Shown: positions 2,678-23,010, counted from the first letter of the stretch. The stretch is 24,000 nucleotides of DNA from Aquibacillus sediminis (GCF_005870085.1 NZ_SZNM01000009.1:18616-42615), one strand, 5' to 3'. Numbers and translations are program-made. Notes: generated by a model from the letters alone, not told the origin.

Positions 2678-2701
2678 GTGGGACAAGCGCCCTTGTCCCA
2701 C
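2678..2701 (-). terminator. A-family short variant acting as terminator of the aminotransferase gene
   Basis: GTGGGACAAG-CGCC-CTTGTCCCAC is a perfect 10-bp stem. On the minus strand it is followed by TTTTGGTG. It begins 1 nt after the stop codon at 2703-2705. Confidence 0.6.
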
Positions 2702-2702
2702 T

Positions 2703-3884
2703 TTAAAGTACGTTACTTAGTTTTTGAATTCCTTCTACTATTTCCTGTTTGTCTGCATAGCTGAAGGAGAGTCGGAGGTATTCTTTTCCATCTTGCGGAT
2801 TCAAGAAAAAATACTTCCCTGGGATATAGGAGATTCCTTCGGCAAGAGCTTGGCTTAGTAGTTGGGATGTATCGACACCCGCCACTTTCACCCAGACAAA
2901 GTATCCTCCTTCAGGTTTATACCAGGAAACAGAATCAGGCATATGTTGTTCGAGTGCAGAAAGTAACACCGCACATTTGTCTTGATAGGCCTCCCCTAAG
3001 ACTTGGATTCGTTCCCCAATATCGTTTTGCTCCAAAAATGATGCCATAGTTGCTTGAGCAAATGGATGGTCTAAATCCTTTTTAAACCAAGCAATCGCAT
3101 TGATAAACTCCGAGTCTGCAGCTACCCAACCAATTCGCATTCCAGGCGCTACTACTTTGGATAGAGATCCAAGATACAGCACACGCCCATCAATATCCAT
3201 GGCTTTTAACGGAGTAGGGGACGCGTCAAACGATAATTCCCCATAAGCATCGTCCTCTAAAATTAGGAAATCATATTTAGCTGCAAGCTCCAGTACATGT
3301 TTCCGACGTTCCTCGTTCATCGTTGTCCCTGTTGGATTTTGGAAAGTTGGAATCGTATATAAAACCTTTGGAAGAGGAAGACCTTTTTGTTTCCTTTCTA
3401 CTAGCACCTCTTCTAATTTGTTCGTTTGCAAGCCGTGCTGATCGACTGGAATGCTTATAAAGTGATCTGTATAGTTTTGAAAAATTTCCAGTGCCTCCAT
3501 ATATGTAGGAGATTCCACGGCAACAACGGTGTTGCTATCCAGCAAAATACGCGCAACTAAATCAATTGCTTGGCATGCACCAGCTGTTATTAAAAGTTCA
3601 TCTTCCGAAACGCCCATATCTCGCTTGGCCATCCTTGCATGGATCTGTTCCTTTAACTTATCCACTTTTGGACTTCCTACATAATGCAGCGGTAAATCCT
3701 GCTCTTCTTCAAGCAAGCGATTAACAGCAGCATTTAACGCTTCAGTTGGCACAAGATTAGGTGCGGGAAATCCAGAACTTAATCGAATACACCCATCCGG
3801 CAGCATCGGCATCCATTCACCTGGAGGATCATGCTTAAGTGCCGCTTTCGTATTGTCATTAAAATAAGATTGCCTATTCATCAA
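2703..3884 (-). CDS. PLP-dependent aminotransferase, class I/II fold (2-aminoadipate/aromatic aminotransferase-like)
   Basis: 393 aa. It has the SLSK(V) PLP-lysine motif (LGSLSKVVAPGMRIGW) and IRLSSGFPAPNLVP and TIPTFQNPTG blocks typical of the family. The start is TTG at 3884 or ATG at 3881, after AAAGGTGA. Confidence 0.85.
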   Translation of the reverse strand: MMNRQSYFNDNTKAALKHDPPGEWMPMLPDGCIRLSSGFPAPNLVPTEALNAAVNRLLEEEQDLPLHYVGSPKVDKLKEQIHARMAKRDMGVSEDELLITAGACQAIDLVARILLDSNTVVAVESPTYMEALEIFQNYTDHFISIPVDQHGLQTNKLEEVLVERKQKGLPLPKVLYTIPTFQNPTGTTMNEERRKHVLELAAKYDFLILEDDAYGELSFDASPTPLKAMDIDGRVLYLGSLSKVVAPGMRIGWVAADSEFINAIAWFKKDLDHPFAQATMASFLEQNDIGERIQVLGEAYQDKCAVLLSALEQHMPDSVSWYKPEGGYFVWVKVAGVDTSQLLSQALAEGISYIPGKYFFLNPQDGKEYLRLSFSYADKQEIVEGIQKLSNVL

Positions 3885-3902
3885 CTATCATTCACCTTTC
3901 AT

Positions 3903-4057
3903 ATAAAGTGAAACTTCCACTCAGTGGTTTGTTTGCTCTTCCCCACTGAGTGGAAGTTAAACCAATCGGGGTGTTAGCATCCGTTTTACTCCCACTTAAA
4001 CATCTTCGTTTTACTTCATGTTTTGAAGTGGGAGTTTTACGGACGGTTGCACCGGGA
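3903..4057. repeat. C-family 155-bp structured repeat, copy 1
   Basis: About 80 percent identical by eye to 9460-9615. It has a perfect 16-bp hairpin (3912-3927 with 3943-3958) and a 10-bp hairpin (3988-3997 with 4026-4035), and ends in GACGGTTGCACCGGGA. Confidence 0.85.
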
Positions 4058-4064
4058 TAAATAA

Positions 4065-4100
4065 GGAAGCACCGGGACGGTTCATGTGCTTCCTTTTCTC
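4065..4100. repeat. B-family hairpin (reverse orientation) with a T-run on the plus strand
   Basis: GGAAGCAC-CGGGACGGTTCAT-GTGCTTCC followed by TTTTCTC. The loop holds the reverse complement of the family core GAACCGTCCC. Confidence 0.7.
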
Positions 4101-4179
4101 GGCAAGAGTTTATGCTTCCACTTTCAGAAGCGCTTAATGCGCGGGATCTGTTCCCCGTTTCCTATATTTTTTATTTTAC

Positions 4180-4218
4180 AACAAAAATAGAAGCAGGAGA
4201 ACCGTCTCCCCTGCTTCC
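4180..4218 (-). terminator. B-family hairpin, intrinsic terminator of the YjiH-like gene
   Basis: The minus strand reads GGAAGCAGGGGAGACGGTTCTCCTGCTTC followed by TATTTTTGTTG. It lies 46 nt downstream of the stop at 4264. Confidence 0.7.
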
Positions 4219-4232
4219 ACCCTCAATAGTGA

Positions 4233-4263
4233 GTGGGACAAGTGCCCTGTCCCCGTGTCCCAC
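4233..4263 (+). repeat. A-family 31-bp element
   Basis: GTGGGACAAGTGCCCTGTCCCCGTGTCCCAC. It is flush (0-nt gap) with the stop codon TAA at 4264-4266 of the minus-strand gene. Confidence 0.9.
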
Positions 4264-5655
4264 TTAAAAGAATAATAGATGGGCCATTAGTGCTGCAACT
4301 GGTAGGGTAATGATCGTTCTTTGTAAGAAGATGATAAATAGTTGCACAAATGATACCGGAATTTTTGACTTGATTAATAAAATTCCAATTTCGGACATGT
4401 AGATTAACTGTGACAAGGACATCACACCGATCACAAAACGTGTCAGTTCTGATTCGATGCCACTACCAACGACAGCTGGTAAGAACATGTCCGCAAAACC
4501 AACTAGCATCGCGGGAGCAGCTGCCTCTGCCTCAGGAATTTGCAACAATTGTAGTAATGGTACAATCGGATAGGATAAATAATTGAAAATTGGTGTGAAC
4601 TCCGCAATCACAAGTGCAATCGTACCTAGCGCCATCACAAGTGGAATTAATGAAAACCAAATATCCACCACATTTTGCACACCACTTTTTACGACACTTT
4701 TGTAACTCTTTACCTGATCTGCTTTTTCAACAGCCTTTTGAACGCCCCACTGAAAACTAGACACACCTTCAGGGACCTCTTCATTAATTTGCTTTCCGAC
4801 CGGTTCATAATACGAGTCTTTTTTCCACGAAAGTGGCGGAATTCTTGGGCAAATAATCGCCGCAATCACCCCTGTGACAATTACAGTGAAATAAAACTGA
4901 ACAAACATATGATCAATATTTAAAAAACGTGCAATCACAAGACTGAAAGCAATTGATGCAATTGAAAAATTCGTCGCAACCACGGACGCTTCACGCTTCG
5001 TATAGTAACCAGCTTCATATTGTTGTGTCGTTAACAACACCCCAACCGTTCCACTTCCCATCCATGATGCGAATGCATCAATCGAAGAACGTCCAGGTAA
5101 TTGAAATAAAGGTTGCATGACTTTACGTACTAATGTTCCGATAAAATCCATTAAGCCAAATTGAAGTAACAACGGCATAAATAAACAAGCAAATAAAAAC
5201 CAAACCATTAACACTGGAATTAAATCATATAGCACAACGCCACCTGTTAAACCTGACCAAACCAATTCAGGACCGATTTCCGTCAATGTAAAAGTTGCAA
5301 ATAAAGCACCAATACAACGTAGCACTAACCAGAATGGCGTGATATCAAATAAACCACTTAAAAATGTATTTTGTTGCACAACGGATAGATTTGTCGCTTT
5401 AACTAGTAAACTACCAACTGCTGATAGGCATAACACAATCGTCATAAATAATGGAATATAATCCGCAATCGCAGCTTGTAGACCATCTGCTAAAATTCCC
5501 AGTCCGATCGTTACTGTACCATCGACAGAAATGGGAACTAAAAATAGCAGAACCCCAATCAATGATGGCACGATAAAGTTTAAATACTTCTTCGTTGAAA
5601 TCTCCTGTTCTTTCGTTGTCATTGCTTCTGCTTGTTGTACTTTTTCCATCCCCAT
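4264..5655 (-). CDS. YjiH-like nucleoside-recognition (Gate) domain membrane protein
   Basis: 463 aa and polytopic. The N-terminus ...KYLNFIVPSLIGVLLFLVPISVDG and overall layout resemble Firmicute YjiH-family proteins. The family assignment is from memory, not a search. Confidence 0.65.
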   Translation of the reverse strand: MGMEKVQQAEAMTTKEQEISTKKYLNFIVPSLIGVLLFLVPISVDGTVTIGLGILADGLQAAIADYIPLFMTIVLCLSAVGSLLVKATNLSVVQQNTFLSGLFDITPFWLVLRCIGALFATFTLTEIGPELVWSGLTGGVVLYDLIPVLMVWFLFACLFMPLLLQFGLMDFIGTLVRKVMQPLFQLPGRSSIDAFASWMGSGTVGVLLTTQQYEAGYYTKREASVVATNFSIASIAFSLVIARFLNIDHMFVQFYFTVIVTGVIAAIICPRIPPLSWKKDSYYEPVGKQINEEVPEGVSSFQWGVQKAVEKADQVKSYKSVVKSGVQNVVDIWFSLIPLVMALGTIALVIAEFTPIFNYLSYPIVPLLQLLQIPEAEAAAPAMLVGFADMFLPAVVGSGIESELTRFVIGVMSLSQLIYMSEIGILLIKSKIPVSFVQLFIIFLQRTIITLPVAALMAHLLFF

Positions 5656-5729
5656 TTATTTCTCCCCCAATTGTATATCTATTCGTTTGAATAACTGTAT
5701 AAATAGCTCCGTTTCTCTTGATAGTTAAT

Positions 5730-5759
5730 AATATACCACTAATATGAATAAATATGCAA
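5730..5759 (-). promoter_or_regulatory. Putative sigma-A promoter of the YjiH-like gene
   Basis: On the minus strand TTGCAT (5759-5754), an 18-nt spacer, then TGGTATATT with an extended -10 (5738-5730). This leaves a leader of about 65 nt. Confidence 0.4.
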
Positions 5760-6074
5760 TACCCTTTTATTATTTTTTATAAAAAAATATCCTCTCAATT
5801 TATAAATAGAAGCAAAGAAAGCATTTTTAACACTGACGCAAACACAAAAAGTTACGTTTAGTCCGTGAAAACCGTTTCATTTCAACTATGTATAAATATA
5901 CCACAACCAGAATATTCGACTCACAATGGATAAAGCTCCCACACATCCTATAAACATTAGTGGAATTTTGTATCTTAGTTGACGGAAACTATGAGTATAC
6001 GTGCTCTCTCGGTTGATTCAGAACAGTCTATCGTGCGATTCTACCGAAAGATGCTTAACAACAGTATTTTGCCC

Positions 6075-6109
6075 CAAAAAAGAAGCACAGGAAAAATCCC
6101 TGCGCTTCT
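6075..6109 (-). terminator. Intrinsic terminator of the esterase/BVMO operon (B-like hairpin)
   Basis: The minus strand reads AGAAGCGCAGGGATTTTTCCTGTGCTTCT followed by TTTTTTGGGG. It lies 16 nt downstream of the stop at 6125. Confidence 0.75.
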
Positions 6110-6124
6110 CAGCTAGAAATCTAT

Positions 6125-7054
6125 TTATTTTGTTAAAGCCCTTCTTAACGCAGTTGCTGCTTGAGTAATTGCTTGATCCCCTTTTTCCATCGCAGCAGGC
6201 ATCCAAAAGTAACCATGAATCATGCCGTCATAACGACAGGCTTCAACGGGGACTCCTGCTTGGTTCAAGCGTTCAGCATAGGCTTCTCCCTCATCGCGTA
6301 ACGGATCATATTCACCCGTGAGGACGAGTGCTGGTGGAAGTCCACTAAGATCATCGGCAAGCATTGGTGAAGCATAGGGGCTCTGACCGTCAGAAGCATC
6401 GCGTAAATAATGATCCCAAAACCACACCATACTATCCTTTGTTAAAAAGTACCCATCCGCATTATCACGATAAGAATCTGTTTCAAAATTATGGTTGGTA
6501 ACTGGATAAATTAATAGTTGATAGGCAATATCTGGGCCACCTTTGTCGCGAGCCATTAAGGAAACAACTGCTGCGAGGTTGCCTCCCGCACTATCCCCAC
6601 CAACAGCAACACGCTCCTGGTCGACATTTAGTGAAGCAGCTTTGTCAGCAACCCACTTTGTTGCAGCATAACAATCCTCTGCTGCTGCAGGATATTTATG
6701 CTCCGGAGCAAGTCGGTAATCGACAGACACAACTACACATTCTGCTCGATTGGCGAGTAACCGACAAGGCACATCGACCGTATCTAAATCACCGACCACC
6801 CAGCCACCACCATGGTAATAAACCAAGGCTGGAAACGGGCCCTCTCCTTTTGGGGTATAGATACGTATTGGGATATCACCCGCTGGACCTGGAACCGTTC
6901 GATTTTCTACTTTTCCAACCGCTTCTGGTTCTCCCGCTAACGGACCCATATCAATCGATGCACGCGCTTCTTCAGGGGAAAGTTCACTCATCGGTGGCTC
7001 CCCTGCCTCTTCCAATTGATCTAATATAAATTTTGCTTGTGGATCTAACGTCAT
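6125..7054 (-). CDS. Alpha/beta hydrolase, hormone-sensitive-lipase family esterase
   Basis: It has the HGGGW oxyanion motif (VYYHGGGWVVGD), the GDSAGG nucleophile elbow, and C-terminal DPLRDEG and HGY. AAGGAGGAAG SD. Confidence 0.9.
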   Translation of the reverse strand: MTLDPQAKFILDQLEEAGEPPMSELSPEEARASIDMGPLAGEPEAVGKVENRTVPGPAGDIPIRIYTPKGEGPFPALVYYHGGGWVVGDLDTVDVPCRLLANRAECVVVSVDYRLAPEHKYPAAAEDCYAATKWVADKAASLNVDQERVAVGGDSAGGNLAAVVSLMARDKGGPDIAYQLLIYPVTNHNFETDSYRDNADGYFLTKDSMVWFWDHYLRDASDGQSPYASPMLADDLSGLPPALVLTGEYDPLRDEGEAYAERLNQAGVPVEACRYDGMIHGYFWMPAAMEKGDQAITQAATALRRALTK

Positions 7055-7108
7055 ACCACATCTTCCTCCTTGTCAGTAGATTATATATTAAGAAAATTTC
7101 CTTGATAA

Positions 7109-8713
7109 CTAAGTTAATGAAAACCCTTCGTACCCTTTGGCCGCGACATCATCACAAATTTGACGATAAGGCCCAACGCCTCCAAGATAAATTTGGAAGC
7201 CTCTTGGTTTGCCTTCAATATTTGCCCCCATGTACCATGAATCTGTTTTGGTAAATAATGTCGCTTCTGCTACTTCACGACAATGGCTACTCCAGTCATC
7301 TTCTGCTTCTACGTTAGCCTCAATCGTTTGGGCGCCATTTTTTTCCATATACTCAATACATTCCGAAATCCACTCGACATGTTGCTCAATCGATACCATC
7401 ATATTACTTAACACGGATGGACTTTCTGGGCCAGTGATCATAAACATATTTGGAAAACCTGTTGTAGCAAGACCGAGATACGTCTTTAACTGCGCCCCGT
7501 CATCCCACTTTTCTTGTAAGGAGACGCCATCTTTGCCTCGAATATCCATTTTAAACAGTGGACCTGTCATCGCATCAAAACCGGTCGCAAATACGATCAT
7601 ATCTAGCTCATACTCTTTTTCTGTAGTGCGAATGCCAGTTGAGGTAATTTCCTCAATTGGGGCATTTTTCACACTAACCAACGAGACATTGTCACGGTTA
7701 TATGTTTCAAAATAATCCGTATCAATAATCGGCCGTTTGGTCGCATAATAGAAATCTGGCATTAATTTCGCTGCTACCTCAGGATCTTTCACAATCTCAC
7801 GTATTTTTGAACGGATAAAACTAGCAAGCGTTTCATTCGCTTCTGCATTCACATTGATATCATTGTACGTATAGGATAAATTCATTAATCCACCTTTTTC
7901 CCAAGCAGCTTCAAACACACGCTGCCGTTCTTCAGGGGAATCATCTAGTGCAGAACGGTCTCTCGGAGCACCAGGCATACCCGTTAGAGAGTAGCGCATT
8001 TCTTCTTTAACCTCATCAAAATTTTCTCTTATCTGCTTCAATCTGTCTGGATCATATGGCTTATTATGTGCAGGGGTACTATATTGTGGTGTTCGTTGAA
8101 AAACAGTCAGGTGTTTTGCTTCCTTCGCAATGGCGGGAATGGACTGAATACCGCTGGAACCAGTGCCAATTACCCCAACATGCTTTCCTTCAAAATCAAC
8201 TTTTTCATGTGGCCATCGACCGGTATGGTACCATTCGCCTTCAAAGTTTTCTAAACCTTTAAAATGGGGGACATTCGATGCAGACAGGCACCCTACTGCG
8301 GTAATAAAATACTTAGCTGAGACAGGAGTGCCCTCGTCGGTTGTTATGTTCCAACGATTGGTTGCTTCATCATAATGAGCACTTTCTATGCGGGTGTTAA
8401 ATTGAATGTCACGCCGGAGATCTAATTTATCGGCAACGAAGTTTATATAACGAAGAATCTCCGGTTGTTCTGCATATCTAGCAGACCAAGTCCATTCATT
8501 AAGAATTTCTACCGAGAAGGTATAATTATAGAAAACACTTTCAACATCACAACGAGCTCCTGGATAACGATTCCAATACCAAGTGCCACCAACATCATCA
8601 GCCAATTCATACACACGAGTGGAATAACCTGCTTCACGTAGACGATGAAGCATATACAACCCCGAAAAACCAGCCCCAACGACGACAACATCATAATTTT
8701 GTCCAGTTGTCAT
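7109..8713 (-). CDS. Type I Baeyer-Villiger monooxygenase (cyclohexanone monooxygenase-like flavoprotein)
   Basis: It has GAGFSGL (FAD Rossmann), the BVMO fingerprint FEGEWYHTGRWP (FxGxxxHxxxWP) and GTGSSG (NADPH Rossmann). GGAGGAGGGG SD. Confidence 0.9.
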   Translation of the reverse strand: MTTGQNYDVVVVGAGFSGLYMLHRLREAGYSTRVYELADDVGGTWYWNRYPGARCDVESVFYNYTFSVEILNEWTWSARYAEQPEILRYINFVADKLDLRRDIQFNTRIESAHYDEATNRWNITTDEGTPVSAKYFITAVGCLSASNVPHFKGLENFEGEWYHTGRWPHEKVDFEGKHVGVIGTGSSGIQSIPAIAKEAKHLTVFQRTPQYSTPAHNKPYDPDRLKQIRENFDEVKEEMRYSLTGMPGAPRDRSALDDSPEERQRVFEAAWEKGGLMNLSYTYNDINVNAEANETLASFIRSKIREIVKDPEVAAKLMPDFYYATKRPIIDTDYFETYNRDNVSLVSVKNAPIEEITSTGIRTTEKEYELDMIVFATGFDAMTGPLFKMDIRGKDGVSLQEKWDDGAQLKTYLGLATTGFPNMFMITGPESPSVLSNMMVSIEQHVEWISECIEYMEKNGAQTIEANVEAEDDWSSHCREVAEATLFTKTDSWYMGANIEGKPRGFQIYLGGVGPYRQICDDVAAKGYEGFSLT

Positions 8714-8886: not shown

Positions 8887-8917
8887 GTGGGACATGGGGA
8901 CAGGGCACTTGTCCCAG
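8887..8917 (-). repeat. A-family element, reverse orientation
   Basis: GTGGGACATGGGGACAGGGCACTTGTCCCAG is the reverse complement of the consensus with one terminal change. It lies 174 nt upstream of the BVMO start. Confidence 0.9.
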
Positions 8918-9015: not shown

Positions 9016-9312
9016 TTATTCTTCTTTTAATTCTTTTCTATATTTCTTAATTAATAAATCAACGACATCTAAGTTATTGTCAATAAACGTTAATCTTTCA
9101 CGAGCAGTTTTGCTCCAATCAAAATGCAAGTCAGTCGCTGTAAAAATATGACGAAGTCCGAAAGAATATAAGTGATGTAATTGGCTAACTATAAAACTAC
9201 TACCAACATCTCTTCCTTTCTTTTCAAATACCTCCTTGATATCATCTTTTAACCAATCAGGGGCCACCTCGACCGCTTTATTTGCTAGTACTTGATACTC
9301 CCTATATGTCAT
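9016..9312 (-). CDS. Hypothetical 98-aa protein
   Basis: It has a strong SD (GGGGGAG 8 nt upstream), its own terminator and a possible TATAAT promoter. I recognise no motif. Confidence 0.6.
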   Translation of the reverse strand: MTYREYQVLANKAVEVAPDWLKDDIKEVFEKKGRDVGSSFIVSQLHHLYSFGLRHIFTATDLHFDWSKTARERLTFIDNNLDVVDLLIKKYRKELKEE

Positions 9313-9375
9313 AATCTTTTCTCCCCCTTCTAAATAACGAAGCGCAGGGGCGTTTCTTACACTCCTTCACTAAAG

Positions 9376-9403
9376 GAAGCAGGAGAACCGTCCCCCTTGC
9401 TTC
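9376..9403. repeat. B-family hairpin
   Basis: GAAGCAGGAGAACCGTCCCCCTTGCTTC is near-identical to 4190-4217. It lies in the 5' leader region of the 98-aa ORF. Confidence 0.85.
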
Positions 9404-9404
9404 G

Positions 9405-9839: not shown

Positions 9840-9870
9840 CTGGGACAAATGCCCTATCCCCATGTCCCAT
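9840..9870 (+). repeat. A-family element (diverged) abutting the SD of the nuclease gene
   Basis: CTGGGACAAATGCCCTATCCCCATGTCCCAT is followed immediately by TAAAGGAG, then ATG at 9888. Confidence 0.85.
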
Positions 9871-9887
9871 TAAAGGAGTTAAAGCTA

Positions 9888-10724
9888 ATGCAAATAGATG
9901 AATATAAATTTAAAGGTGTCATATCTTCTATCAGCAATCAGGTTAGGGGAGAATTATTTTCTCAAAGCAATCAGCACATACATTTTATACAAACATTAAT
10001 AAAGGAAGGCGTTCCTACTCCTGTTTTATCGGTTTGCGGAAAAGGAACACAGGAAATTCGATTCACGAAATATTTTGCTTATTATCTTGACGAAAAAAAA
10101 TTTCACGGTTTGGTCTCTGAATGTTTAAAAGCAGCTTTTGATCAAGAGGCTATAGCGGCCGGACTTCTAGATGATTGGTACCAGGGGTGTGATGTTTTTT
10201 CTGAATATAACCTGGGGAAGATCACTGGTTACGACCTTAATAACTATATCGATATCTTGATCAAAGGGGACGACTTTGTTGTTTGTGTGGAACAAAAGTT
10301 ACTAAGTGGGGAGAGCAATACAAATGAGACAAATCTTGGGCAGTTAGAACGGTATAGTCTCGCATTAACCCAAAATGAAGAGTTTAAAGACGTACAAGTT
10401 ATTAAAATTTATTTAACACCAAACGAGTCGATCCCTACCAGCTCAACTGATTGGATTGCTATGTCCCATGAAAAACTTGTAAAACGATTAATCCCTCTTA
10501 TCTCCAATGAAAAACTATCATCGACAGCGGTCGAAAATGTTAAGCGCCTGTTGCTTGATTTTATCCTTGGACCCTATGAATCTACTGATCAAGTTATCTA
10601 CAATTTGTATGAACGAGCTCAACAGGTGGTTCGGAGTGGGTATGCAGTTAGTAAAACACAAGCATTTATTGACTTGCTCCAAAAACATCATCTGCTCTTG
10701 CAAATTCTTAGAGGAGGAAAATAG
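9888..10724 (+). CDS. PD-(D/E)XK (RecB-like) nuclease-fold protein, uncharacterized family
   Basis: Ordered motifs are FSEYNLG (E), YIDILIKGDDFVVCVEQK (D..ExK) and GQLERY (QxxxY), followed by IKIYLTP. This layout is typical of uncharacterized PDDEXK families. I trimmed the start to the ATG at 9888 (AAAGGAG SD), because the track start at 9849 lies inside a repeat. Confidence 0.7.
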   Translation: MQIDEYKFKGVISSISNQVRGELFSQSNQHIHFIQTLIKEGVPTPVLSVCGKGTQEIRFTKYFAYYLDEKKFHGLVSECLKAAFDQEAIAAGLLDDWYQGCDVFSEYNLGKITGYDLNNYIDILIKGDDFVVCVEQKLLSGESNTNETNLGQLERYSLALTQNEEFKDVQVIKIYLTPNESIPTSSTDWIAMSHEKLVKRLIPLISNEKLSSTAVENVKRLLLDFILGPYESTDQVIYNLYERAQQVVRSGYAVSKTQAFIDLLQKHHLLLQILRGGK

Positions 10725-10726
10725 GA

Positions 10727-11287
10727 ATGAATCATTTATCGGGATCTGGAAAATTGTATCTAAAAGAATACTATGCCTTGAAATACGCTGAAAACACAGT
10801 AAATACATTTCTTGACAATTTACTAAATGATACCTATCAATACATTGTTGCGCGCCTACCAAAAAACGTAAATCATTATAGCTGGAGTGCCAATCAAGCC
10901 AAGCAAGGGAGAATGGAATTGTATCCTCATTTCTCTAGTAACCATGGGATATTTGCGGGCGATAAAGTTGAACTATCTGTTCTTTATCGAGATGTTCGTG
11001 ATTATGATCATATGGAAAAAACAGCGAGCATTCGATTGTCTATATACTGCCGCAAAGGATTAAAGGCAAGGTTTGGTGACATCCCACAAGCAGTACTACA
11101 AAATGCTTGTGAATCAGCAGAACAACACGGGATTACCATTCAGATAGAAAAAGGCCAACCATTATATTGCGAATACATCGATGTGAACCTTGATGACGTT
11201 GAAGAAACGATTCGAGAGGTTGGAGAAGCGATGATACGGATTGGAAAAGGGGTGGATGCATTTGTAGATGGGGTTTTAGTAGGGTAG
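10727..11287 (+). CDS. Hypothetical 186-aa protein, translationally coupled to the nuclease gene
   Basis: The ATG is 2 nt after the upstream TAG, and a GGAGGA SD lies inside the upstream gene's 3' end. I recognise no motif. Confidence 0.65.
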   Translation: MNHLSGSGKLYLKEYYALKYAENTVNTFLDNLLNDTYQYIVARLPKNVNHYSWSANQAKQGRMELYPHFSSNHGIFAGDKVELSVLYRDVRDYDHMEKTASIRLSIYCRKGLKARFGDIPQAVLQNACESAEQHGITIQIEKGQPLYCEYIDVNLDDVEETIREVGEAMIRIGKGVDAFVDGVLVG

Positions 11288-11290
11288 GCA

Positions 11291-11317
11291 GAAGCAGCGG
11301 GTCGGTCCTTGTGCTTC
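11291..11317. repeat. B-family element (reverse, diverged) just after the plus-strand operon
   Basis: GAAGCAGCGGGTCGGTCCTTGTGCTTC, whose reverse complement is GAAGCACAAGGACCGACCCGCTGCTTC. Only 6 bp of terminal stem remain and there is no T-run, so it is a weak terminator at best. Confidence 0.6.
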
Positions 11318-11443
11318 CTAATTCATGTACACCAACGCCTACGCCTCATGATTCAGACTGGTTTTAGGCACTAGCTCCCCGCGCCCCCATTTGTAAAAGG
11401 CATCCAAATTTATCCATTGCAAATGGACAAACCAACTACAAAC

Positions 11444-11471
11444 GGCGCTGGTCATGATCATTACCAGCGCC
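11444..11471 (-). terminator. Hairpin downstream of the man operon
   Basis: GGCGCTGGT pairs with ACCAGCGCC (9-bp stem, 10-nt loop). On the minus strand it is followed by GTTTGTAG, a poor U-run. Confidence 0.35.
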
Positions 11472-11475
11472 CCTA

Positions 11476-11499
11476 GTGGGACAAGTGTCCATGTCCCAC
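11476..11499 (+). repeat. A-family short (24-bp) variant
   Basis: GTGGGACAAGTGTCCATGTCCCAC is flush (0-nt gap) with the stop TGA at 11500-11502 of the SIS gene. Confidence 0.85.
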
Positions 11500-12498
11500 T
11501 CACTCTCTATTTGTAACTTTACGAATAATAGACGCTTCTCCTGCTACTAAGCCTTTTTTCTCGGATAAGCGAACGGCTGCTATTTGAGTAACGCTTGAAT
11601 AGATAATCGGACTGACGAATTCACTGACAGATTTCATCGTAATTGATGTCACATTGTCGTGTTCGAGAGGTTCATCTGATACATATACAACTTTCCCGCC
11701 GTAATCCGCTATCTCTTTTGCCATTTCTAAATTATGCTCGTAGGTCTTCCCATAAGGATTAAATAAAATACATTGAAACGGTTCACGTAACAGTTCGTAA
11801 GGTCCGTGTCTAAATTGTGCAGAGGACAGGGATTCCGTGTAAATTCGAGCCGTTTCTTTTAACGTTAACCCTCCCTGTTCTGCCGTTGTGACACTTGGCC
11901 CGCGTCCAAGCAGTACTAATGGTTGGTTCGGATTGATCGTGTCTACGAGCTTATCGCCAATCGCAGCAAACTGATTTTCCAACACATCACCTAACACATC
12001 TGCAGCGACGAGTAAATCCGATTCCAACGATTCTCCATATTCCTTTGAAAATAACTGCAACAATAACGCTACCGTTGTGGTGAAGGATTTCGAAGATGCG
12101 ATTGCTTTTTCTTGTGTCGCTTTCGTGTAGTAAACATTGGCAGAACCTGTTGTGATTGAACTACCTGGTGTATTGGTAATAGCAGATACATGATGGGTCT
12201 TCTCTAGTAGTTGCTTCACTTCAAAGCTTTCCCCACTTTGCGAACTAATCAATAGGTTATAATGGTTTAACATTGGTGACTGATAATGAAGCAATTCCGA
12301 ACAATCAATCGCTTGAGCCATCCCACCATTGCTAGTCACATATAAAGCCGCCAATTGGGAAGCAGCTAACGAACTACCCATACCAGTAAGCAAAAACGGC
12401 TTGTTTTTATCAAAATTAAAAGTAGTATCGATATTTCCATTAACTGTGTCTTTTATCGACTGTGGTTGCTCATGTACTTCAGTTAAAAATAAACTCAT
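11500..12498 (-). CDS. SIS-domain sugar-phosphate isomerase/deglycase (GlmS C-terminal / FrlB / AgaS-like)
   Basis: 332 aa with two SIS-like halves (LLTGMGSSLAASQ..., ISSQSGES, VLLGRGPS). It is the last gene of the man cluster. Confidence 0.75.
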   Translation of the reverse strand: MSLFLTEVHEQPQSIKDTVNGNIDTTFNFDKNKPFLLTGMGSSLAASQLAALYVTSNGGMAQAIDCSELLHYQSPMLNHYNLLISSQSGESFEVKQLLEKTHHVSAITNTPGSSITTGSANVYYTKATQEKAIASSKSFTTTVALLLQLFSKEYGESLESDLLVAADVLGDVLENQFAAIGDKLVDTINPNQPLVLLGRGPSVTTAEQGGLTLKETARIYTESLSSAQFRHGPYELLREPFQCILFNPYGKTYEHNLEMAKEIADYGGKVVYVSDEPLEHDNVTSITMKSVSEFVSPIIYSSVTQIAAVRLSEKKGLVAGEASIIRKVTNRE

Positions 12499-12562
12499 AT
12501 GCGATCATCCCTTCACAGATTTATAATTATGTACGTTTATAAGAACAGCCGCCCCTTAGTAA

Positions 12563-12589
12563 GAAGCACAAGAACCGTCCCGCCGCTTC
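12563..12589. repeat. B-family element (diverged)
   Basis: GAAGCACAAGAACCGTCCCGCCGCTTC lies between manA and the SIS gene. Confidence 0.7.
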
Positions 12590-12641
12590 CTTATTAGGAA
12601 CTGTGCGAAACCCTCCTTGTACATTCATGCGGGAATATCAA

Positions 12642-12672
12642 GTGGGACAAGTGCCCTGTCCCCATGTCCCAC
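12642..12672 (+). repeat. A-family 31-bp element
   Basis: GTGGGACAAGTGCCCTGTCCCCATGTCCCAC. Its last base is shared with the manA stop codon TAG (12672-12674). Confidence 0.9.
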
Positions 12673-13628
12673 TACACGTGTGATACGATCAATTCTGCTT
12701 TTCCTGTTAATTGATAGTTGCGAACGCCATTTGGCAAAATAAAATGGCTTCCTTTTTCAATTTCAAATGACTGATCCTCGACAGTAATGGTTGCATTTCC
12801 GTCTATAACACTAACTTGCAAGAAGTCTTGCTCTAACGTCAATGATGCACTGCCCTCAAGTTCCCAATGATAAACAGAGAAATACTCCGCTTCTACCAAC
12901 TGCTTCACCGTTAAGTCCTCTACTTTCGATACACTTTGCTCTCCTACTGCATCTTTGTGTGGCACAGTCGTAACTTCCATTGCTTTTTCTAAGTGTAGTT
13001 CACGTTTGTTCCCTTCCGCATCGGTTCGATCATAATCATAGACGCGATATGTAATATCTGAACTTTGTTGGGTTTCTAAAATGACAATCCCTTTTCCAAT
13101 CGCATGAATCGTCCCACTCGGAACATAGACAAAATCACCAGCTTGCACTTTGATCCGACCTAAAAATTGATCCCACTCACCATTTTCTACCATCGTTTTT
13201 AATTCTTGGTCGGATTTTGCATGGTGACCAATCACGAGTTCCGCTTCAGGCTCTGCACTTAGGACATACCAGCACTCGGTCTTCCCATATGGCGCCCCTT
13301 CCACTTCACGCGCATAGGTATCATTCGGATGCACTTGGACAGATAAGTCATCATTCGCATCTAAAATTTTAACAAGCAATGGGTATTCCTCGTCATTATC
13401 CTTGCTTTTATGAAATAACTCTCCATGTTCGTTCCATGCATCTGCTAGTGTTTTGCCAGCTAGAGGTCCATTGGTTATGATACTTGGCCCATTAGGATGG
13501 GCAGAAATCACCCACGCTTCCCCTGTTTGTGCAGATGGAATCTCATAGTTAAATTCTGTTTGTAATTTTTGACCGCCCCAAATACGCTCTTGAAATACAG
13601 GCTGTAAAAAAATCGGCTCTTTGTACAT
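12672..13628 (-). CDS. manA: Mannose-6-phosphate isomerase, class I (Bacillus type)
   Basis: The N-terminus MYKEPIFLQPVFQERIWGG, then QVHPND and GTIHAIG cupin metal motifs. It lies directly downstream of the PTS gene, as in B. subtilis manP-manA. Confidence 0.9.
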   Translation of the reverse strand: MYKEPIFLQPVFQERIWGGQKLQTEFNYEIPSAQTGEAWVISAHPNGPSIITNGPLAGKTLADAWNEHGELFHKSKDNDEEYPLLVKILDANDDLSVQVHPNDTYAREVEGAPYGKTECWYVLSAEPEAELVIGHHAKSDQELKTMVENGEWDQFLGRIKVQAGDFVYVPSGTIHAIGKGIVILETQQSSDITYRVYDYDRTDAEGNKRELHLEKAMEVTTVPHKDAVGEQSVSKVEDLTVKQLVEAEYFSVYHWELEGSASLTLEQDFLQVSVIDGNATITVEDQSFEIEKGSHFILPNGVRNYQLTGKAELIVSHV

Positions 13629-13680
13629 AAATAGTTACCTCCAATATTAAGTTGATTGATCCAAATTTATAATGTAAAGA

Positions 13681-13705
13681 AAGCATGAGCCCCGTCCCCA
13701 TGCTT
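13681..13705 (-). other. Intercistronic hairpin between manP and manA
   Basis: The minus strand reads AAGCATGGGGACGGGGCTCATGCTT followed by TCTTT. The stem is about 7 bp. It could be a partial terminator or a processing site. Confidence 0.35.
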
Positions 13706-13713
13706 TCCCCCTG

Positions 13714-18039: not shown

Positions 18040-18060
18040 CTACTTTAATTAATACCAAAA

Positions 18061-18089: not shown

Positions 18090-18092
18090 CGT

Positions 18093-18123
18093 GTGGGACA
18101 AGGGGACAGGTTTACTGTCCCAG
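18093..18123 (-). repeat. A-family element, reverse orientation, diverged
   Basis: GTGGGACAAGGGGACAGGTTTACTGTCCCAG forms an inverted pair with 18221-18252. Confidence 0.8.
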
Positions 18124-18155
18124 AAAGAAGCAGCGAGGACGTGGGGAATCTCGCA

Positions 18156-18171
18156 GACGGTTGCACCGGGA
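18156..18171. repeat. C-family tail fragment
   Basis: GACGGTTGCACCGGGA is identical to 4042-4057 and 9600-9615. It is preceded by the B-like fragment GAAGCAGCGAGGACG. Confidence 0.7.
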
Positions 18172-18220
18172 TCAAGACAAACGTCCAACATCACACCATA
18201 TCTATAGGCGTGCTCCACAA

Positions 18221-18252
18221 GTGGGGACAAGTGCCCTGTCCCCATGTCCCAC
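18221..18252 (+). repeat. A-family element (one extra G)
   Basis: GTGGGGACAAGTGCCCTGTCCCCATGTCCCAC ends 1 nt before the stop TGA at 18254-18256. Confidence 0.9.
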
Positions 18253-18253
18253 T

Positions 18254-18847
18254 TCACCCCTGCTTCTCTCTTCCTCGTTTCCATCTTTTCAGCAAGTATT
18301 GCTCATTTTCCTTTGTATTCACGTTTAGAAGCATTTCACTTTTCACGATTGGTGTTTCTACTTTAACTTTCCAGAAGGGTAAGTAGTTCAATTCGAGTTT
18401 TTTGAGTTTATAGGTTGGTTTTTTCATCATATACATGGAGTTAATTTGGTTTTGTTGAACGTCTTGGACATATTTTTTCACTTCATTGATTGTAGAGATA
18501 TGGGGAGCTAAAAGTAGTTCTTTCTCGACTGTTTCCGTTTTTGTATACGGTACGTCGGTTAGGATGCCACGATATCCTGTCATCCCCTCAACAAAAACCA
18601 TCTGCGGACTAACTTTTGATGCAAACGGTTTGCGGGAAGCTATTACCAATAGTTGTGCGGTCCAAAACGGATGGTAATAGCAAGTTTCCTCTGTAATCCC
18701 TTTTTCAATATATTCTACATTAATCTTTCCCTTTAAACGATCACGCAATGGTAGATTTTTATAAATTAATTTAGCTAATGGAAGGTACTTCTCCTTTTTT
18801 GATGTTATTAGATTTACTTGTTCATCTTTAACAGTTGTCAAAGCCAT
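18254..18847 (-). CDS. Hypothetical 197-aa protein, last gene of the symporter operon
   Basis: It starts 13 nt after the symporter stop and has a G-rich SD. It looks soluble and lysine-rich, and I recognise no motif. Confidence 0.6.
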   Translation of the reverse strand: MALTTVKDEQVNLITSKKEKYLPLAKLIYKNLPLRDRLKGKINVEYIEKGITEETCYYHPFWTAQLLVIASRKPFASKVSPQMVFVEGMTGYRGILTDVPYTKTETVEKELLLAPHISTINEVKKYVQDVQQNQINSMYMMKKPTYKLKKLELNYLPFWKVKVETPIVKSEMLLNVNTKENEQYLLKRWKRGREKQG

Positions 18848-18860
18848 TTTCTATCCCCCC

Positions 18861-20303
18861 CTATTGTGCATCCTTTATTGCTGTGTGATTTAATTCAACT
18901 TCATGCTGGACTTCCTCTGATGGTGGAGGTGTCAACAAGCTAACAATGATCGTTAACGCAAAGGATACAGGCGTCGCAAACATGACCTCATTAATCACTT
19001 CTAAAGGCAATAGCATTGCACCGACATAGACGGTAATACCACCAATAACCCCTGCTAGAGCACCCGGTTTATTTGCTCGCTTCCACCACAACCCTAATAA
19101 TATTGGGGCACTAAAACTAGAAACCAGTGCTCCCCCAATCATCGCGATCATGACATGTAAAAGTGGAGGTGGATTTAAAGATAAAACAATCGCAATAGTT
19201 GCAGCTAGTAGCATGACGACTAATCCAATTCTCGTAACCTTTTTTTCTGGTGCATTTTTATTAATGTGCCCTTTGTATAAATCATGCGCAACTCCTGATG
19301 AGGCCGCTAGTAAAAAGGCGTCTGTCGATGACATAATCGATGCTAGAATAGAGGATAGTAGAATCCCAGCAATAACCGGTGACAAGTAAACCTCTATCAC
19401 GCGTAAAAAGGCAATATCGTTGTTATCTGCAAACGTGTCACTCAAACCAATTCCCGCCATCAATACAAACGCCCCAGTCATGAACAGGACTGCAAATAAC
19501 AGTGTCCCACCAATCATGGAAAGACGTGCATGTCGTGCATTTTTCGCACTTAACGTTCTCATAACTGCAGCTGGCGTCACAACCGCAAACCATAGGAAAA
19601 CAAAAAACAGGGCAAAATAACTGTACCATGGCAACGTCGCATCAAATGCATTTGGATTCACACTAAGCGCCGCATCAATTACATTCGGTACCCCGCCATG
19701 ATTGACAATAATAACGACTGCCAGTACCGCTACACCAGCAACCATCATAATTCCTTGTATTAAGTCGGTATAAGTAATCGCCCACATACCACCGATGGAA
19801 GCATAAAGTGTCATCCCAGCACCAATCACGATGACGGTTAAAGCATAAGGCCACCCAAGCACATAAGAACCTACATACCCAACAGTCGTTAATTGGGGAA
19901 CGATATAAATGGTCATTAAAATAACGATTAAGACAGCTGACACGATCCGAACCGAATTACCAAACCGTTTTCCAAAATAAGCCGGCAGCGTGGTCACCCC
20001 AGATCTTCTCATTTGAGCGGCAAAAAGAAATAAAGCAAACGGAAATAATGCAACACTTCCTAACCCCGTCGCAAGGTAGTAGGGAACGCCATATGCTACA
20101 CCAGACCCTATCGCCCCATACATCGAACCACCGCTTGCTACAGCTGCAAAAACCGCGAATGAACCAACAAAACCATTTACCGAACGACCGGCTAACCAGT
20201 AATCATCCTCTGTTGAAAGGGCTTTTCTAGAAAAATAAATACCAATAACAGTCATAACTAACAAATAGACAATAATAACGGTTGTTTCAACGGGTCTCAT
20301 CAC
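18861..20303 (-). CDS. Sodium:solute symporter (SSS) family transporter
   Basis: 480 aa with about 13 TM segments and typical SSS N-terminal blocks (YWLAGRSV, GGSMYGAIG). The start is GTG at 20303 or ATG at 20300, after AAGGAG. Confidence 0.85.
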   Translation of the reverse strand: MMRPVETTVIIVYLLVMTVIGIYFSRKALSTEDDYWLAGRSVNGFVGSFAVFAAVASGGSMYGAIGSGVAYGVPYYLATGLGSVALFPFALFLFAAQMRRSGVTTLPAYFGKRFGNSVRIVSAVLIVILMTIYIVPQLTTVGYVGSYVLGWPYALTVIVIGAGMTLYASIGGMWAITYTDLIQGIMMVAGVAVLAVVIIVNHGGVPNVIDAALSVNPNAFDATLPWYSYFALFFVFLWFAVVTPAAVMRTLSAKNARHARLSMIGGTLLFAVLFMTGAFVLMAGIGLSDTFADNNDIAFLRVIEVYLSPVIAGILLSSILASIMSSTDAFLLAASSGVAHDLYKGHINKNAPEKKVTRIGLVVMLLAATIAIVLSLNPPPLLHVMIAMIGGALVSSFSAPILLGLWWKRANKPGALAGVIGGITVYVGAMLLPLEVINEVMFATPVSFALTIIVSLLTPPPSEEVQHEVELNHTAIKDAQ

Positions 20304-20324
20304 ACATCACTCCTTTATGATTTA

Positions 20325-20540
20325 TTATTCTTCGTCCTCAACCTTCTCCGCCCAAAAGACAAAAATGATTGATTGGGTCGTCCATATAAAAAAGCCTATA
20401 ATCATCAACCAATTAAAGAGAGGTATTCCTAACCAACCAGGACTAGTGGGGAACCATGCAAAAAGAAAAATGGCATAGGCAATTAAAATAACCGTCATAA
20501 TAATTCCCGGGTTTTTCATGATATTTTTCTTTTGTTTCAT
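20325..20540 (-). CDS. Small 2-TM membrane protein upstream of the symporter (YhjC/DUF3311-like accessory gene)
   Basis: I trimmed it to MKQKKNIMKNPGIIMTVILIAYAIF... (ATG at 20540, GGAGG 9 nt upstream). It has two hydrophobic helices. Its position mimics the small genes known to precede SSS transporters. The family name is from memory. Confidence 0.55.
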   Translation of the reverse strand: MKQKKNIMKNPGIIMTVILIAYAIFLFAWFPTSPGWLGIPLFNWLMIIGFFIWTTQSIIFVFWAEKVEDEE

Positions 20541-20760
20541 CACCTTTCGCCTCCAATCATTTTTTAAAAAATTTTCCTTGCAAACTACAGGGATACGACG
20601 ACCCATTAAGAAAGGGCTTACATTTTAATCGGAAATAATGTGTCCCCCAGTTACGAGGGCTATCCGTTTTTTATGCAAACCACATCACCCTTTTTTTCTT
20701 TCCTTAAAAGATCTATATGCATAAAAGTATTTTTGTATACAATTAATTTGGTACAAACAG

Positions 20761-20800
20761 AAAAAATAAAAAAAGAAGCAACGGGACGGTCTCCTGCTTC
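20761..20800 (-). terminator. B-family hairpin, intrinsic terminator downstream of the TRAP operon
   Basis: The minus strand reads GAAGCAGGAGACCGTCCCGTTGCTTC followed by TTTTTTTATTTTTT. Confidence 0.65.
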
Positions 20801-20867
20801 ATTGTTGAGGAAGTAGAGAATTGGCCCTTGCTTACGACGATATTAAGCACTATTAATACAGTCTTGT

Positions 20868-20904
20868 TAAAAAGACCCACCACGCCTCTGTAAGAAGCGT
20901 GGTG
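20868..20904 (-). terminator. Second terminator-like hairpin downstream of the TRAP operon
   Basis: The minus strand reads CACCACGC-TTCTTACAGAG-GCGTGGTG followed by GGTCTTTTTAAC. Confidence 0.5.
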
Positions 20905-20960
20905 ATTTCTGTTACCTAGTGTCAATAATTGATTTGTTTACGCATTTAGAAAAAGGGAAT

Positions 20961-20983
20961 CTCAAGTACAGTTCTTGTGCTTC
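20961..20983. repeat. Partial B-family element
   Basis: The reverse complement GGAAGCACAAGAACTGTACTTGAG matches the left half of family B (GAAGCACAAGAACCGT). Confidence 0.5.
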
Positions 20984-21054
20984 CTTCTGTGATATCAAGT
21001 ACTTAAAACCGCCACCACCCAACAATATATAACCATAAACATCGCCTAGTCACC

Positions 21055-23010
21055 TTAACTTCCACCGCCACCTTTAAACAACCTCAACTGGGACAAGTGC
21101 CCTGTCCCCATGTCCCACTTTTGGTGGAGGATCACTGCTAGGAGTAGGGCAATTCCTATGGTATCTGTTAGTGTGCCTGGATATAGCATTAGAACGCCGC
21201 TTGCGATAAGCAAAATTCGTTCTAGATAGTTAGCAACCATAAGCAACCATCCGATGGCGCCACCTGCTAAGGTGATCACACCGATCGTCGCGGTAAGGAA
21301 GGCCATAACAATTTGAATTGGAGAGCCATTCATCAATAAGGACGGTTCTACTACAAACATAAACGGGACGATAAACCCAACTAAGCCTAACCGGACAGCT
21401 TCCAACCCTACTCGATTTGGATTGCTACCCGAGATTCCTGCTGCTGCAAAAGCTGCGACAGCAACTGGCGGCGTAATCGCTGAAAAAATCGAGAAATATA
21501 CAATAAACAAATGGGCAGCCACTGTTGGAACCCCTAATTCGATTAACGCCGGTGCTGCCAACATCGCTGTTAAAATATAAGCGGCTGCAACTGGCATGCC
21601 CATTCCTAAAACGATACAAATAAGCATTACCAATAATAATGTAGGAAAAAGCATTCCATCTGTTAATCCAAGTACAATACTTGTTAATTTCCCACCAAGT
21701 CCAGTCGACATGATGCCCGCAATGACTAACCCTGCTGCTGCACATGCCGTTGTCACTGGTATCGAGGACTTAGCCCCAACAACCATCGCTTCAAAAATTT
21801 CTTTCCATCCCATCCGTGTCCGTTTACGGAACCAGCTTACAATTACAATCGATACAATCCCATAAAATCCTGTTCTAGAAGCACTATACCCTTGCAACAG
21901 CAACAAGACCAACACAATTAACGGAATAAAATAATACCATCCTTGTTTTAACACATCTGAAATCTTAGGAATATCTTGTTTCGCTGCATGCGGCAAATCT
22001 AATCGCAACGCTTCAAAATGAACCATGCTTAATAATGACACATAGTAAAGAATTCCTGGGATCATTGCTGCGATCACAATCGAACCATAGGAAACATTCG
22101 TAACGGCAGCCATCAAAAACGCTGATGATCCCATTATTGGGGGTAAAATACTTCCTCCAGTGGAAGCAGCCGCTTCAATCGCTGCCGCAAATGACGGTTT
22201 ATATCCCACTTTTTTACTTACAGGTATGGTAAAAGCTCCTGTCGTCACTACGTTTGCCGTTGGACTACCGGAAATGGAACCAAATAACGCACTGGTCAGC
22301 ACCGCCACCTTAGCCGCTCCTCCTTTTGATGTACCGGCAATCGCCGTTGACAAACGGAAGAAAAATTCTCCAGCTCCCGCCTTTTGCAAAAACGCCCCAA
22401 ACAATAAAAACATAAACACAAACGAAGCAGCAACGGACACTGGAGAACCCCATAACCCATTTAAACTAAAGGCCAAATCATCTAAAATCGTAATCGGAGC
22501 AAATTCCCTGTGCCCCAACAGACCGCTGAAATGATGCCCCCATAAAGCATAACTGAGGCCTACTACCACGATCATAACAATTGGAACACCGATCGTTCTT
22601 CTGGCTGCTTCGATACTTAGAAGTACGAACACAAGACCAAAAAAGACATCGGCATTTGTGAGTGGGTCCATAATCGGAATCCTTTGTGCTATCCGGTCTG
22701 CATGAATCGTGAAATAGACTCCCGCCCCAAGCGCTAATAACGCACAGAGATAATCGAGGTAGGATGGCATATGACTGGATGCTTTTTTACCTACTTTTGA
22801 ATAACGATAAAATAAAAAAGTCAATCCAATGATAAAAGCCAAATGAATTGCCATCTGATTGATTGGGTTCAATTTTCCCCAAACAACCGACCAGACTTGA
22901 AATACGGATAATAAACAGGCGATAATGTTAAATAGTTTCCGATGGCCACCCGACAAATCACGCTTTTCTCCTGCTGCCAACCATCCTACTACTCTCGTTT
23001 TCATGTTCAC
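21055..23010 (-). CDS. TRAP transporter fused permease (TAXI-associated DctQM-type)
   Basis: 651 aa and highly polytopic, immediately downstream of a TAXI receptor gene. The last 20 or so codons read through A element 21088-21118. Confidence 0.9.
   Translation of the reverse strand: MNMKTRVVGWLAAGEKRDLSGGHRKLFNIIACLLSVFQVWSVVWGKLNPINQMAIHLAFIIGLTFLFYRYSKVGKKASSHMPSYLDYLCALLALGAGVYFTIHADRIAQRIPIMDPLTNADVFFGLVFVLLSIEAARRTIGVPIVMIVVVGLSYALWGHHFSGLLGHREFAPITILDDLAFSLNGLWGSPVSVAASFVFMFLLFGAFLQKAGAGEFFFRLSTAIAGTSKGGAAKVAVLTSALFGSISGSPTANVVTTGAFTIPVSKKVGYKPSFAAAIEAAASTGGSILPPIMGSSAFLMAAVTNVSYGSIVIAAMIPGILYYVSLLSMVHFEALRLDLPHAAKQDIPKISDVLKQGWYYFIPLIVLVLLLLQGYSASRTGFYGIVSIVIVSWFRKRTRMGWKEIFEAMVVGAKSSIPVTTACAAAGLVIAGIMSTGLGGKLTSIVLGLTDGMLFPTLLLVMLICIVLGMGMPVAAAYILTAMLAAPALIELGVPTVAAHLFIVYFSIFSAITPPVAVAAFAAAGISGSNPNRVGLEAVRLGLVGFIVPFMFVVEPSLLMNGSPIQIVMAFLTATIGVITLAGGAIGWLLMVANYLERILLIASGVLMLYPGTLTDTIGIALLLAVILHQKWDMGTGHLSQLRLFKGGGGS
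21088..21118 (+). repeat. A-family element inside the 3' end of the TRAP permease ORF
   Basis: CTGGGACAAGTGCCCTGTCCCCATGTCCCAC is translated on the minus strand as ..KWDMGTGHLSQ.. Confidence 0.9.

Follow-up and report, generated by a model that had tools for sequence, protein, structure and literature searches.

We examined a 24,000-nt stretch of DNA from Aquibacillus sediminis (the window; coordinates are those of the whole stretch), which contains nine copies of a GC-rich palindrome of 24-31 nt, eight of the nine extragenic. We consider it likely that this element is a miniature, non-autonomous palindrome of the repetitive extragenic palindromic (REP) type, tied in Bacillota to a lineage of Y1/HUH single-stranded-DNA transposases that resemble the REP-associated tyrosine transposases (RAYTs).

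The association with a transposase emerges from relatives of the window. A pattern scan with one genome per species returned at least 119 loci, which constitute a sample and in which open reading frames (ORFs) were called mechanically; 34 of them hold the clear family. Its hosts include Ureibacillus, Mesobacillus, Fredinandcohnia, Virgibacillus, Falsibacillus and Lysinibacillus, and also Syntrophomonadaceae, Dethiobacter, Alkaliphilus, Sporomusaceae, a Coriobacteriia metagenome-assembled genome (MAG) and an Atribacteria MAG, with densities among the relatives of 6-7 copies per 8 kb. When all fetched loci were scanned for an HUH...Y motif three ORFs were recovered, and tblastn added a fourth; three of these four adjoin a copy of the element and the fourth has a related palindrome. 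In Alkaliphilus serpentinus (L039) the transposase ORF lies between two inverted copies, in a Sporomusaceae MAG (L094) a copy is found ~35 nt 5' of the start at a locus that ends within the gene and so gives the upstream flank only, and in Mesobacillus maritimus (L045), a member of the Bacillaceae, the C-terminal half of a transposase homolog runs into a copy. The remaining ORF, from an Atopobiaceae MAG (L109), encodes a distant homolog with ~28% identity to the transposase and clear matches to a helix-turn-helix (HTH) at its C-terminus, and on its 3' side (2990-3100) there is a larger, nested GGGACA palindrome built on GGGACAAGGGTTCGGAACCCTTGTCCC, which indicates that the GGGACA stem is also used outside the Bacillota.

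The Alkaliphilus-type transposase has 252 aa and matches Pfam Y1_Tnp (9.5e-18), and its best NCBIfam match is 'REP-associated tyrosine transposase' (REP_Tyr_transpos). The family has ~3000 members at E <= 1e-10, most of them 252 aa long and named RayT by several sources, and the residues H60 and H62 (in NHIHLL) and Y119 (in YIHQNP) are invariant among 18 diverse members. In Pelosinus fermentans and in metagenome contigs a copy in the G-rich sense lies ~60 nt 5' of the transposase start, and at its other end the gene meets an inverted copy, which touches the stop codon; the loci with inverted copies on both flanks are given in Table 1. A metagenome scan with the alignment of these proteins contributed 80 more loci, making 84 homologs in all, and a hairpin with the core GGGAC[AG]G[GT][GT] is present upstream in 64 and downstream in 62 of the 84. 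The GGGACA stem itself is found mostly with the transposases nearest to the Alkaliphilus one (49-59% identity, metagenome loci). The upstream hairpin usually lies 58-65 nt before the transposase start. This near-fixed distance, seen in L134-L213, L039, L094 and L125, suggests that the hairpin is also part of the promoter or 5' untranslated region (UTR) of the transposase gene, where it could serve in autoregulation.

Where two copies lie within 200 nt of one another they form doublets, of which 11, including the window pair 18093/18222, are in the order sense-antisense and none is in the order antisense-sense, and this is the order of the copies around the transposase gene, a trait shared with REPINs. 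The halves of the window doublet are 98 nt apart when measured from the full 18093 copy, or 102 nt from core to core (27-nt cores). The 27-nt core of the copy at 18093-18123 is, moreover, identical to that of the copy at L039 843-870, 5' of the transposase gene of Alkaliphilus serpentinus; such identity across hosts of different classes hints at horizontal transfer or at very strong constraint.

The consensus of the element's G-rich strand is (G)TGGGACA-NN-GGGACAGG-N5-TGTCCCA(C), which on the strand written in a first-pass annotation of the window, made from its sequence alone, reads (T)GGGACA-N5-CCTGTCCC-N2-TGTCCC(A). A stem of 8-11 bp surrounds the conserved loop core GGGGAC(A/G)G, with outer stems of 8-10 bp in the window copies and of up to 11-12 bp in relatives. 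Around transposase genes the stems vary by locus yet stay complementary (GGGACA, AACACA, GTGACA, GAAGCA, AAAACA and others). In a 67-sequence alignment, with the structure specified beforehand and pairs counted, the covariation score of the 11-pair stem was 0.447 compared with 0.223 after shuffling, a value that 0 of 500 shuffles reached, and sliding the pairing partners gave scores of at most 0.20. RNAalifold predicted no structure from the hairpin alignment, on account of register shifts. The long form has an 8-bp stem and a 15-nt loop, and its minimum-energy fold is the outer hairpin. The first-pass annotation had proposed that an internal second TGTCCC creates two competing hairpins; these can be drawn on paper, but folding prefers the outer 8-bp stem, and the family alignment, with which folding agrees, shows that the internal TGTCCC complements the conserved loop core and does not form a rival stem. 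On the G-rich strand, which ends up in the mRNA when a copy follows a stop codon, G-T/G-U wobbles are frequent in the inner stem, and they favour folding of that strand. With forms of 24 and 31 nt, the element is an imperfect palindrome of 20-40 nt that forms a stem-loop, as expected of a REP. Rfam covariance models gave no match, whether at gathering thresholds or with E relaxed to 1, and three other identities were dropped on inspection, namely a G-quadruplex (there are only three G-runs), a SECIS element (all three stop codons are in use) and a CsrA site (the GGA loop is not conserved).

A search of the window with the 31-mer GTGGGACAAGTGCCCTGTCCCCATGTCCCAC, allowing up to three mismatches, found five matches with 0-2 mismatches (starting at 4233, 8887 on the other strand, 12642, 18222 and 21088) and none in 100 shuffled sequences. 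Direct reading added four further copies: those at 2678 and 11476 are short forms of 24 nt, the one at 9840 has four mismatches, and the one at 18093 is a loop variant. The nine copies listed in the first-pass annotation are thereby recovered, with one start corrected, since the copy placed at 18221 occupies 18222-18252. The outer 8-mer GTGGGACA occurs 13 times in the window where 0.6 occurrences are expected, and the GC content of the element (~65%) stands well above that of the window (~41%), as had been pointed out. The window mannose-6-phosphate isomerase (PMI) is 100% identical to an Aquibacillus sediminis protein, and the window genes are Bacillaceae-like.

Five window copies lie within 1 nt of the stop codon of a converging minus-strand gene, at exactly the distances first reported (Table 1). 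At 12642..12672 the first G of the element doubles as the G of the TAG stop of the PMI gene (12672..13628), and at 2678 the copy follows the TAA stop of an aminotransferase gene (2703..3884) whose Pfam match reaches residue 388 of 393. The first-pass annotation had called for an alignment of orthologs that lack the element, and for PMI this leaves the native C-terminus intact: at 83% and 77% identity, the PMI proteins of the two nearest available relatives finish on the same terminal residues (..SHV*), and neither gene has the element behind its stop. Judged from such alignments, the stop codons are native where this can be tested. As the PMI relatives are without the element, and as the genes' own terminators lie further downstream, the element is best described as having been inserted after the stop codon and ahead of the remaining 3' region. 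The reverse copies at 8887 and 18093 do sit in contexts other than gene 3' ends, as had been stated; the former is intergenic, with the terminator of gene 9016..9312 on one side and the start of gene 7109..8713 on the other, and no credible gene ends at it. The degenerate copy at 9840 has its TGTCCCAT end 3 nt ahead of the AAAGGAG ribosome-binding site of a plus-strand PD-(D/E)XK gene (likely start 9888).

This placement extends to the whole family. It was counted for 74 copies (the 34 loci plus the window) with respect to converging ORFs of at least 100 codons, a copy being scored when the stop lay -1 to 6 nt from the element's end. The TGTCCC end, on the strand first written, lies at such a stop in 16 of the 74 copies (22%), compared with 1.1% of random intergenic positions in the same loci and with 1/74 for the element's other end, and the modal distance across the family is 1 nt from the core. 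Pfam domains are complete before the stop in nine of ten stop-adjacent ORFs checked. At L034, where two copies 4 kb apart point in opposite directions, each fits its own adjacent gene, which suggests that orientation follows the gene and not the direction of replication. Non-random stop placement, an orientation bias relative to the gene and transcription as an immediately post-stop hairpin, all three proposed for the window, thus hold in other genera as well.

No fixed DNA target accounts for the pattern. Beside the non-genic copies TAA, TAG or TGA is found at the modal offset in 6 of 58 cases where ~2.8 would be expected, a weak and non-significant excess, and their flanks are conserved at position -1 (T), weakly at -2 and nowhere beyond. 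A simple target of the TRA or TA kind was rejected, stop-like triplets being at most weakly enriched and TA at -4/-3 being at background. Targeting of stop-like triplets by the element is therefore not sustained, and the companion idea that it carries them finds limited support: several TAG stops use the element's first base G, and in two family copies the stop is located in the element's spacer. The flank pattern T(A/G)A(A)-GTGGGAC, noted for both sides, is real on the gene-facing side but not on the other. Insertion bias, the purging of copies elsewhere or an advantage for the gene may each underlie the preference for stop codons. At some sites the hexamer unit is multiplied (Table 1), the maximum being five GGGACA or four TGTCCC units at 8-14 nt spacing, and entire hairpins can stand in tandem, which suggests slippage or local duplication in addition to dispersal.

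The copy at 21088, described at first as lying inside an ORF, is indeed within one, and it begins exactly where homology to orthologs of the TRAP permease ends, the similarity both to these and to the TIGR02123 profile stopping at the copy. The ORF continues through the copy for 20 more codons, and the C-terminal 20 residues, WDMGTGHLSQLRLFKGGGGS (window 21055-21120), derive their codons from the element and from the DNA that follows it, and they are a repeat-derived C-terminal extension. Deleting 31 or 27 nt at the copy brings the permease frame to an immediate stop. The C-terminus reconstructed in this way is shorter than that of every ortholog, so that the original end of the protein is uncertain.

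A sister hairpin, GGAAGCAGGGGAGACGGTTCTCCTGCTTC, shares the loop core of the element and differs in the stem, with GAAGCA/TGCTTC pairing around a GGGGACGG(T/G) core. The window holds six of these, bringing the superfamily to 15 hairpins (9 + 6), and several sister-type copies have T-runs and look as if they act as terminators. Hairpins of the sister type also flank other RAYT-like genes of the same transposase family, at metagenome loci L165, L174 and L206. In Aquibacillus sp. 3ASR75-11 (L121) both hairpin families are absent from 21 kb around the orthologous PTS-PMI genes, and on this comparison the hairpin expansion is specific to some lineages within Aquibacillus.

Table 1. Hairpin copies in the window, sites of multiplied units and transposase genes with inverted copies on both flanks.
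Feature	Position	Strand	Element end/stop position	Remarks
Element, short form	2678..2701	-	2701/2703, gap 1	Minus strand is GTGGGACAAGGGCGCTTGTCCCAC; perfect 10-bp stem, tetraloop
Element, long form, 1 mismatch	4233..4263	-	4263/4264, gap 0	Abuts TAA stop of 'Gate' membrane protein gene (4264..5655)
Element, long form	8887..8917	+		G-rich sense on plus strand
Element, degenerate long form, 4 mismatches	9840..9870	-		
Element, short form, loop partly deleted	11476..11499	-	11499/11500, gap 0	Abuts TGA stop of SIS-domain gene (11500..12498)
Element, exact consensus copy	12642..12672	-	12672/12672, overlap 1	Within PTS-PMI-SIS operon
Element, loop variant GTGGGACAAGGGGACAGGTTTACTGTCCCAG	18093..18123	+		Left (sense) half of inverted doublet
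Element, long form	18222..18252	-	18252/18254, gap 1	1 nt past TGA stop of gene 18254..18847; right (antisense) half of doublet
Element, long form	21088..21118	-		Inside 3' end of fused TRAP permease ORF (21055..23010)
Sister hairpin GGAAGCAGGGGAGACGGTTCTCCTGCTTC	4190..4218	-		Followed by T-run; probably a terminator there
Sister hairpin	4065-4093	+		
Sister hairpin	9375-9404	-		
Sister hairpin	12561-12590	-		
Sister hairpin	13679-13707	-		
Sister hairpin	20775-20800	+		
Multiplied units	L084 3520-3920			
Multiplied units	L098 5560-5640			
Multiplied units	L098 6580-6660			
Multiplied units	L058 3460-3610			
Transposase gene with inverted copies on both flanks	L039, L125, L127/128			
Transposase gene with inverted copies on both flanks	L135, L139, L144, L145, L202			Metagenome

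Between copies 9840 and 11476, which are direct copies, a series of minus-strand genes is broken by two genes on the plus strand (9840-11499), one encoding the PD-(D/E)XK nuclease, which matches PDC-S26, and the other a 186-aa protein without a match; the segment may have been inserted as an island, with use or duplication of the element. This gene pair was considered as the source of a mobilising enzyme and set aside, PDC-S26 being a candidate defence family and no transposase. The genes beside the dense clusters at L004, L045, L058 and L098 proved to be ordinary metabolic genes. A phage or plasmid-like origin was discarded, the family pattern being found in only two viral contigs. Cyanobacterial repeats (HIP1 and small dispersed repeats) do not fit a window with a single GCGATCGC and Bacillaceae-like genes, and the loci that the pattern scan returned from Nostoc and Halotia are unrelated chance matches.

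The element shares with the REP/REPIN-RAYT systems of E. coli, Pseudomonas and Stenotrophomonas the form of an imperfect palindrome of 20-40 nt (abundant and mostly extragenic, to judge from the window and its relatives), inverted copies that flank a Y1/HUH gene with the downstream copy touching its stop (PMC2817692), inverted doublets that repeat this transposase-flank arrangement, and many copies a few nt from stops, some of which supply the stop (PMC3733652, PMC12306157). REPs of the GTAG type can supply a TAG stop (PMC3733652), and for E. coli REPs lying at most 15 nt from a stop, ribosome stalling and lower expression have been reported (PMC12306157). The differences lie in the host, which here belongs to the Bacillota; in the ends (G/A)TGGGACA, which pair fully and leave no unpaired GTAG or CGTC (compare PMC3733652); in the conserved part, which is the loop core GGGGAC(A/G)G, the stem around it co-varying freely; and in the transposase, which has ~110 extra C-terminal residues with an HTH-like end and occurs as several paralogs in some genomes. 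A survey of RAYTs describes abundant REPs with group 2 and group 3 RAYTs, studied in Escherichia and Pseudomonas, and mentions Clostridia only for group 1, in passing (PMC5581495).

With IS200/IS605 and its miniature derivatives (PATEs) the system has in common the transposase fold family (Pfam Y1_Tnp) and hairpins that are presumably recognised on single-stranded DNA, for which a strand bias is expected. Unlike those elements, however, it has flanking hairpins that are inverted rather than direct, no fixed 4-5 nt target beside one end, and, as its dispersed unit, one hairpin of 24-31 nt or a doublet, without distinct left and right ends. The small dispersed repeats (SDR) of Nostoc, which Elhai and co-workers are said to have described in 2008, are reportedly hairpins of 21-31 nt, sometimes in short runs of tandem units. 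They would resemble the present element in their very small size and in its runs of GGGACA/TGTCCC units, for example at L084, but differ from it in phylum and sequence, and we know of no transposase linked to them. A literature search with the element sequence returned primer noise only and found no description of the repeat. The first-pass annotation recognised no named family, and we found none either, but its claim of novelty is weakened, since the element has the organisation that defines REP/REPIN elements with a RAYT-type transposase, and stop-touching REPs have already been described.

The hairpin could be mainly a selected cis-acting element of the 3' UTR, tuning termination, ribosome release or mRNA protection, with its mobility incidental. 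Orientation bound to the adjacent gene (16 versus 1, and the opposite copies of L034 fitting opposite genes), the wobbles on the mRNA strand, the lack of a clear stop-like motif at non-genic copies, which leaves DNA targeting alone insufficient, and the precedent of stalling at E. coli REPs (PMC12306157) all speak for such a role. Yet ~78% of family copies lie away from gene ends, the carrier genes are functionally unrelated, close relatives do without the element at the same gene (PMI), short forms persist despite having lost the conserved loop, and the transposase-linked organisation accounts for the sequence conservation without any RNA function, so that we regard a primarily regulatory element as improbable. 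An intrinsic transcription terminator spread by duplication is scarcely credible to us. It would explain a GC-rich hairpin at gene ends, the TTTT directly behind the copy at 2678 (in which the conserved loop motif is deleted) and the one copy that passes a loose terminator scan, but the T-run is absent from most copies, the long form is just an 8-bp stem with a 15-nt loop, the copy at 12642 lies between genes of one operon, and separate terminators consisting of a hairpin and a T-run are found 14 nt past the copy at 4233 and 3 nt past that at 11476, where the GC hairpin GGCGCTGGT..ACCAGCGCC is followed by GTTTGT. Because it sits upstream of the genes' own terminators, the element is the first structure of the 3' UTR and not the terminator.

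Alternatively, insertion itself rather than subsequent selection could set the placement, the transposase or its single-stranded-DNA state directing the element mechanistically to stop codons. The offsets are indeed very tight (0-1 nt in the window, with a family mode that is similarly close), the window copies look young, with 0-2 mismatches, which makes slow compaction unlikely, and the TRAP copy may sit just 5' of a former stop, a near miss that post-stop selection would not lead one to expect. Against this, there is no conserved target motif, most family copies are elsewhere, and the TRAP case is ambiguous given the short C-terminus reconstructed there. To our knowledge no HUH transposase is known to target stop codons in this way, and we hold strict stop-codon homing to be very unlikely. 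A related proposal, that the RAYT lineage inserts the hairpin by sensing the end of the translated region, would make both the orientation and the 0-1 nt spacing properties of insertion; a possible cue is the boundary at which the nascent RNA or the displaced DNA strand loses its ribosome cover. We give this proposal a small chance of being correct.

The likeliest reading remains a REP-type palindrome tied to a RAYT-like transposase. On this model the transposase would recognise the folded hairpin on single-stranded DNA and copy or move it, as IS200/IS605 and RAYT enzymes lead one to expect; the near-identical long copies in A. sediminis would reflect a recent expansion, and the short forms would be relics of deletion. 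Copies do accumulate directly behind native stops, with the G-rich strand in the mRNA and the terminator of the gene further 3'. If E. coli REPs are taken as a guide, a hairpin so placed would have to be melted by the terminating ribosome, which may cause stalling and lower expression, and it may also block 3' exonucleases.

Several observations weigh against this interpretation. The tight placement at stop codons is described, yet not explained, by a REP/RAYT model. We infer mobility, and the empty sites compared are those of relatives at 77-83% protein identity. The window has no RAYT gene, the link for A. sediminis would thus run through its relatives, and within the Bacillaceae the transposase homolog is a partial one, in Mesobacillus maritimus. 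The transposase scores just below the NCBIfam cut-off (78.8 bits against 80) and has the additional HTH-like C-terminal region, and several distinct paralogs occur in some genomes, among them Sporomusa sp. KB1 and S. silvacetica, unlike classical single-copy RAYTs. The element, finally, is without the GTAG/CGTC tag of the described REP superfamilies.

REP/REPIN-RAYT systems have so far been studied almost entirely in Gammaproteobacteria, and our findings indicate a large and apparently undescribed counterpart in the Bacillota. As its recognition hairpin can be read from covariation, with a variable stem around the GGGGAC(A/G)G core, it offers a clean system for the study of hairpin recognition by HUH enzymes, and its tight and oriented post-stop placement makes the question of why REPs cluster at gene ends a testable one. 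For the annotation of these genomes, it accounts for a dense repeat and for the C-terminal extension of at least one protein.

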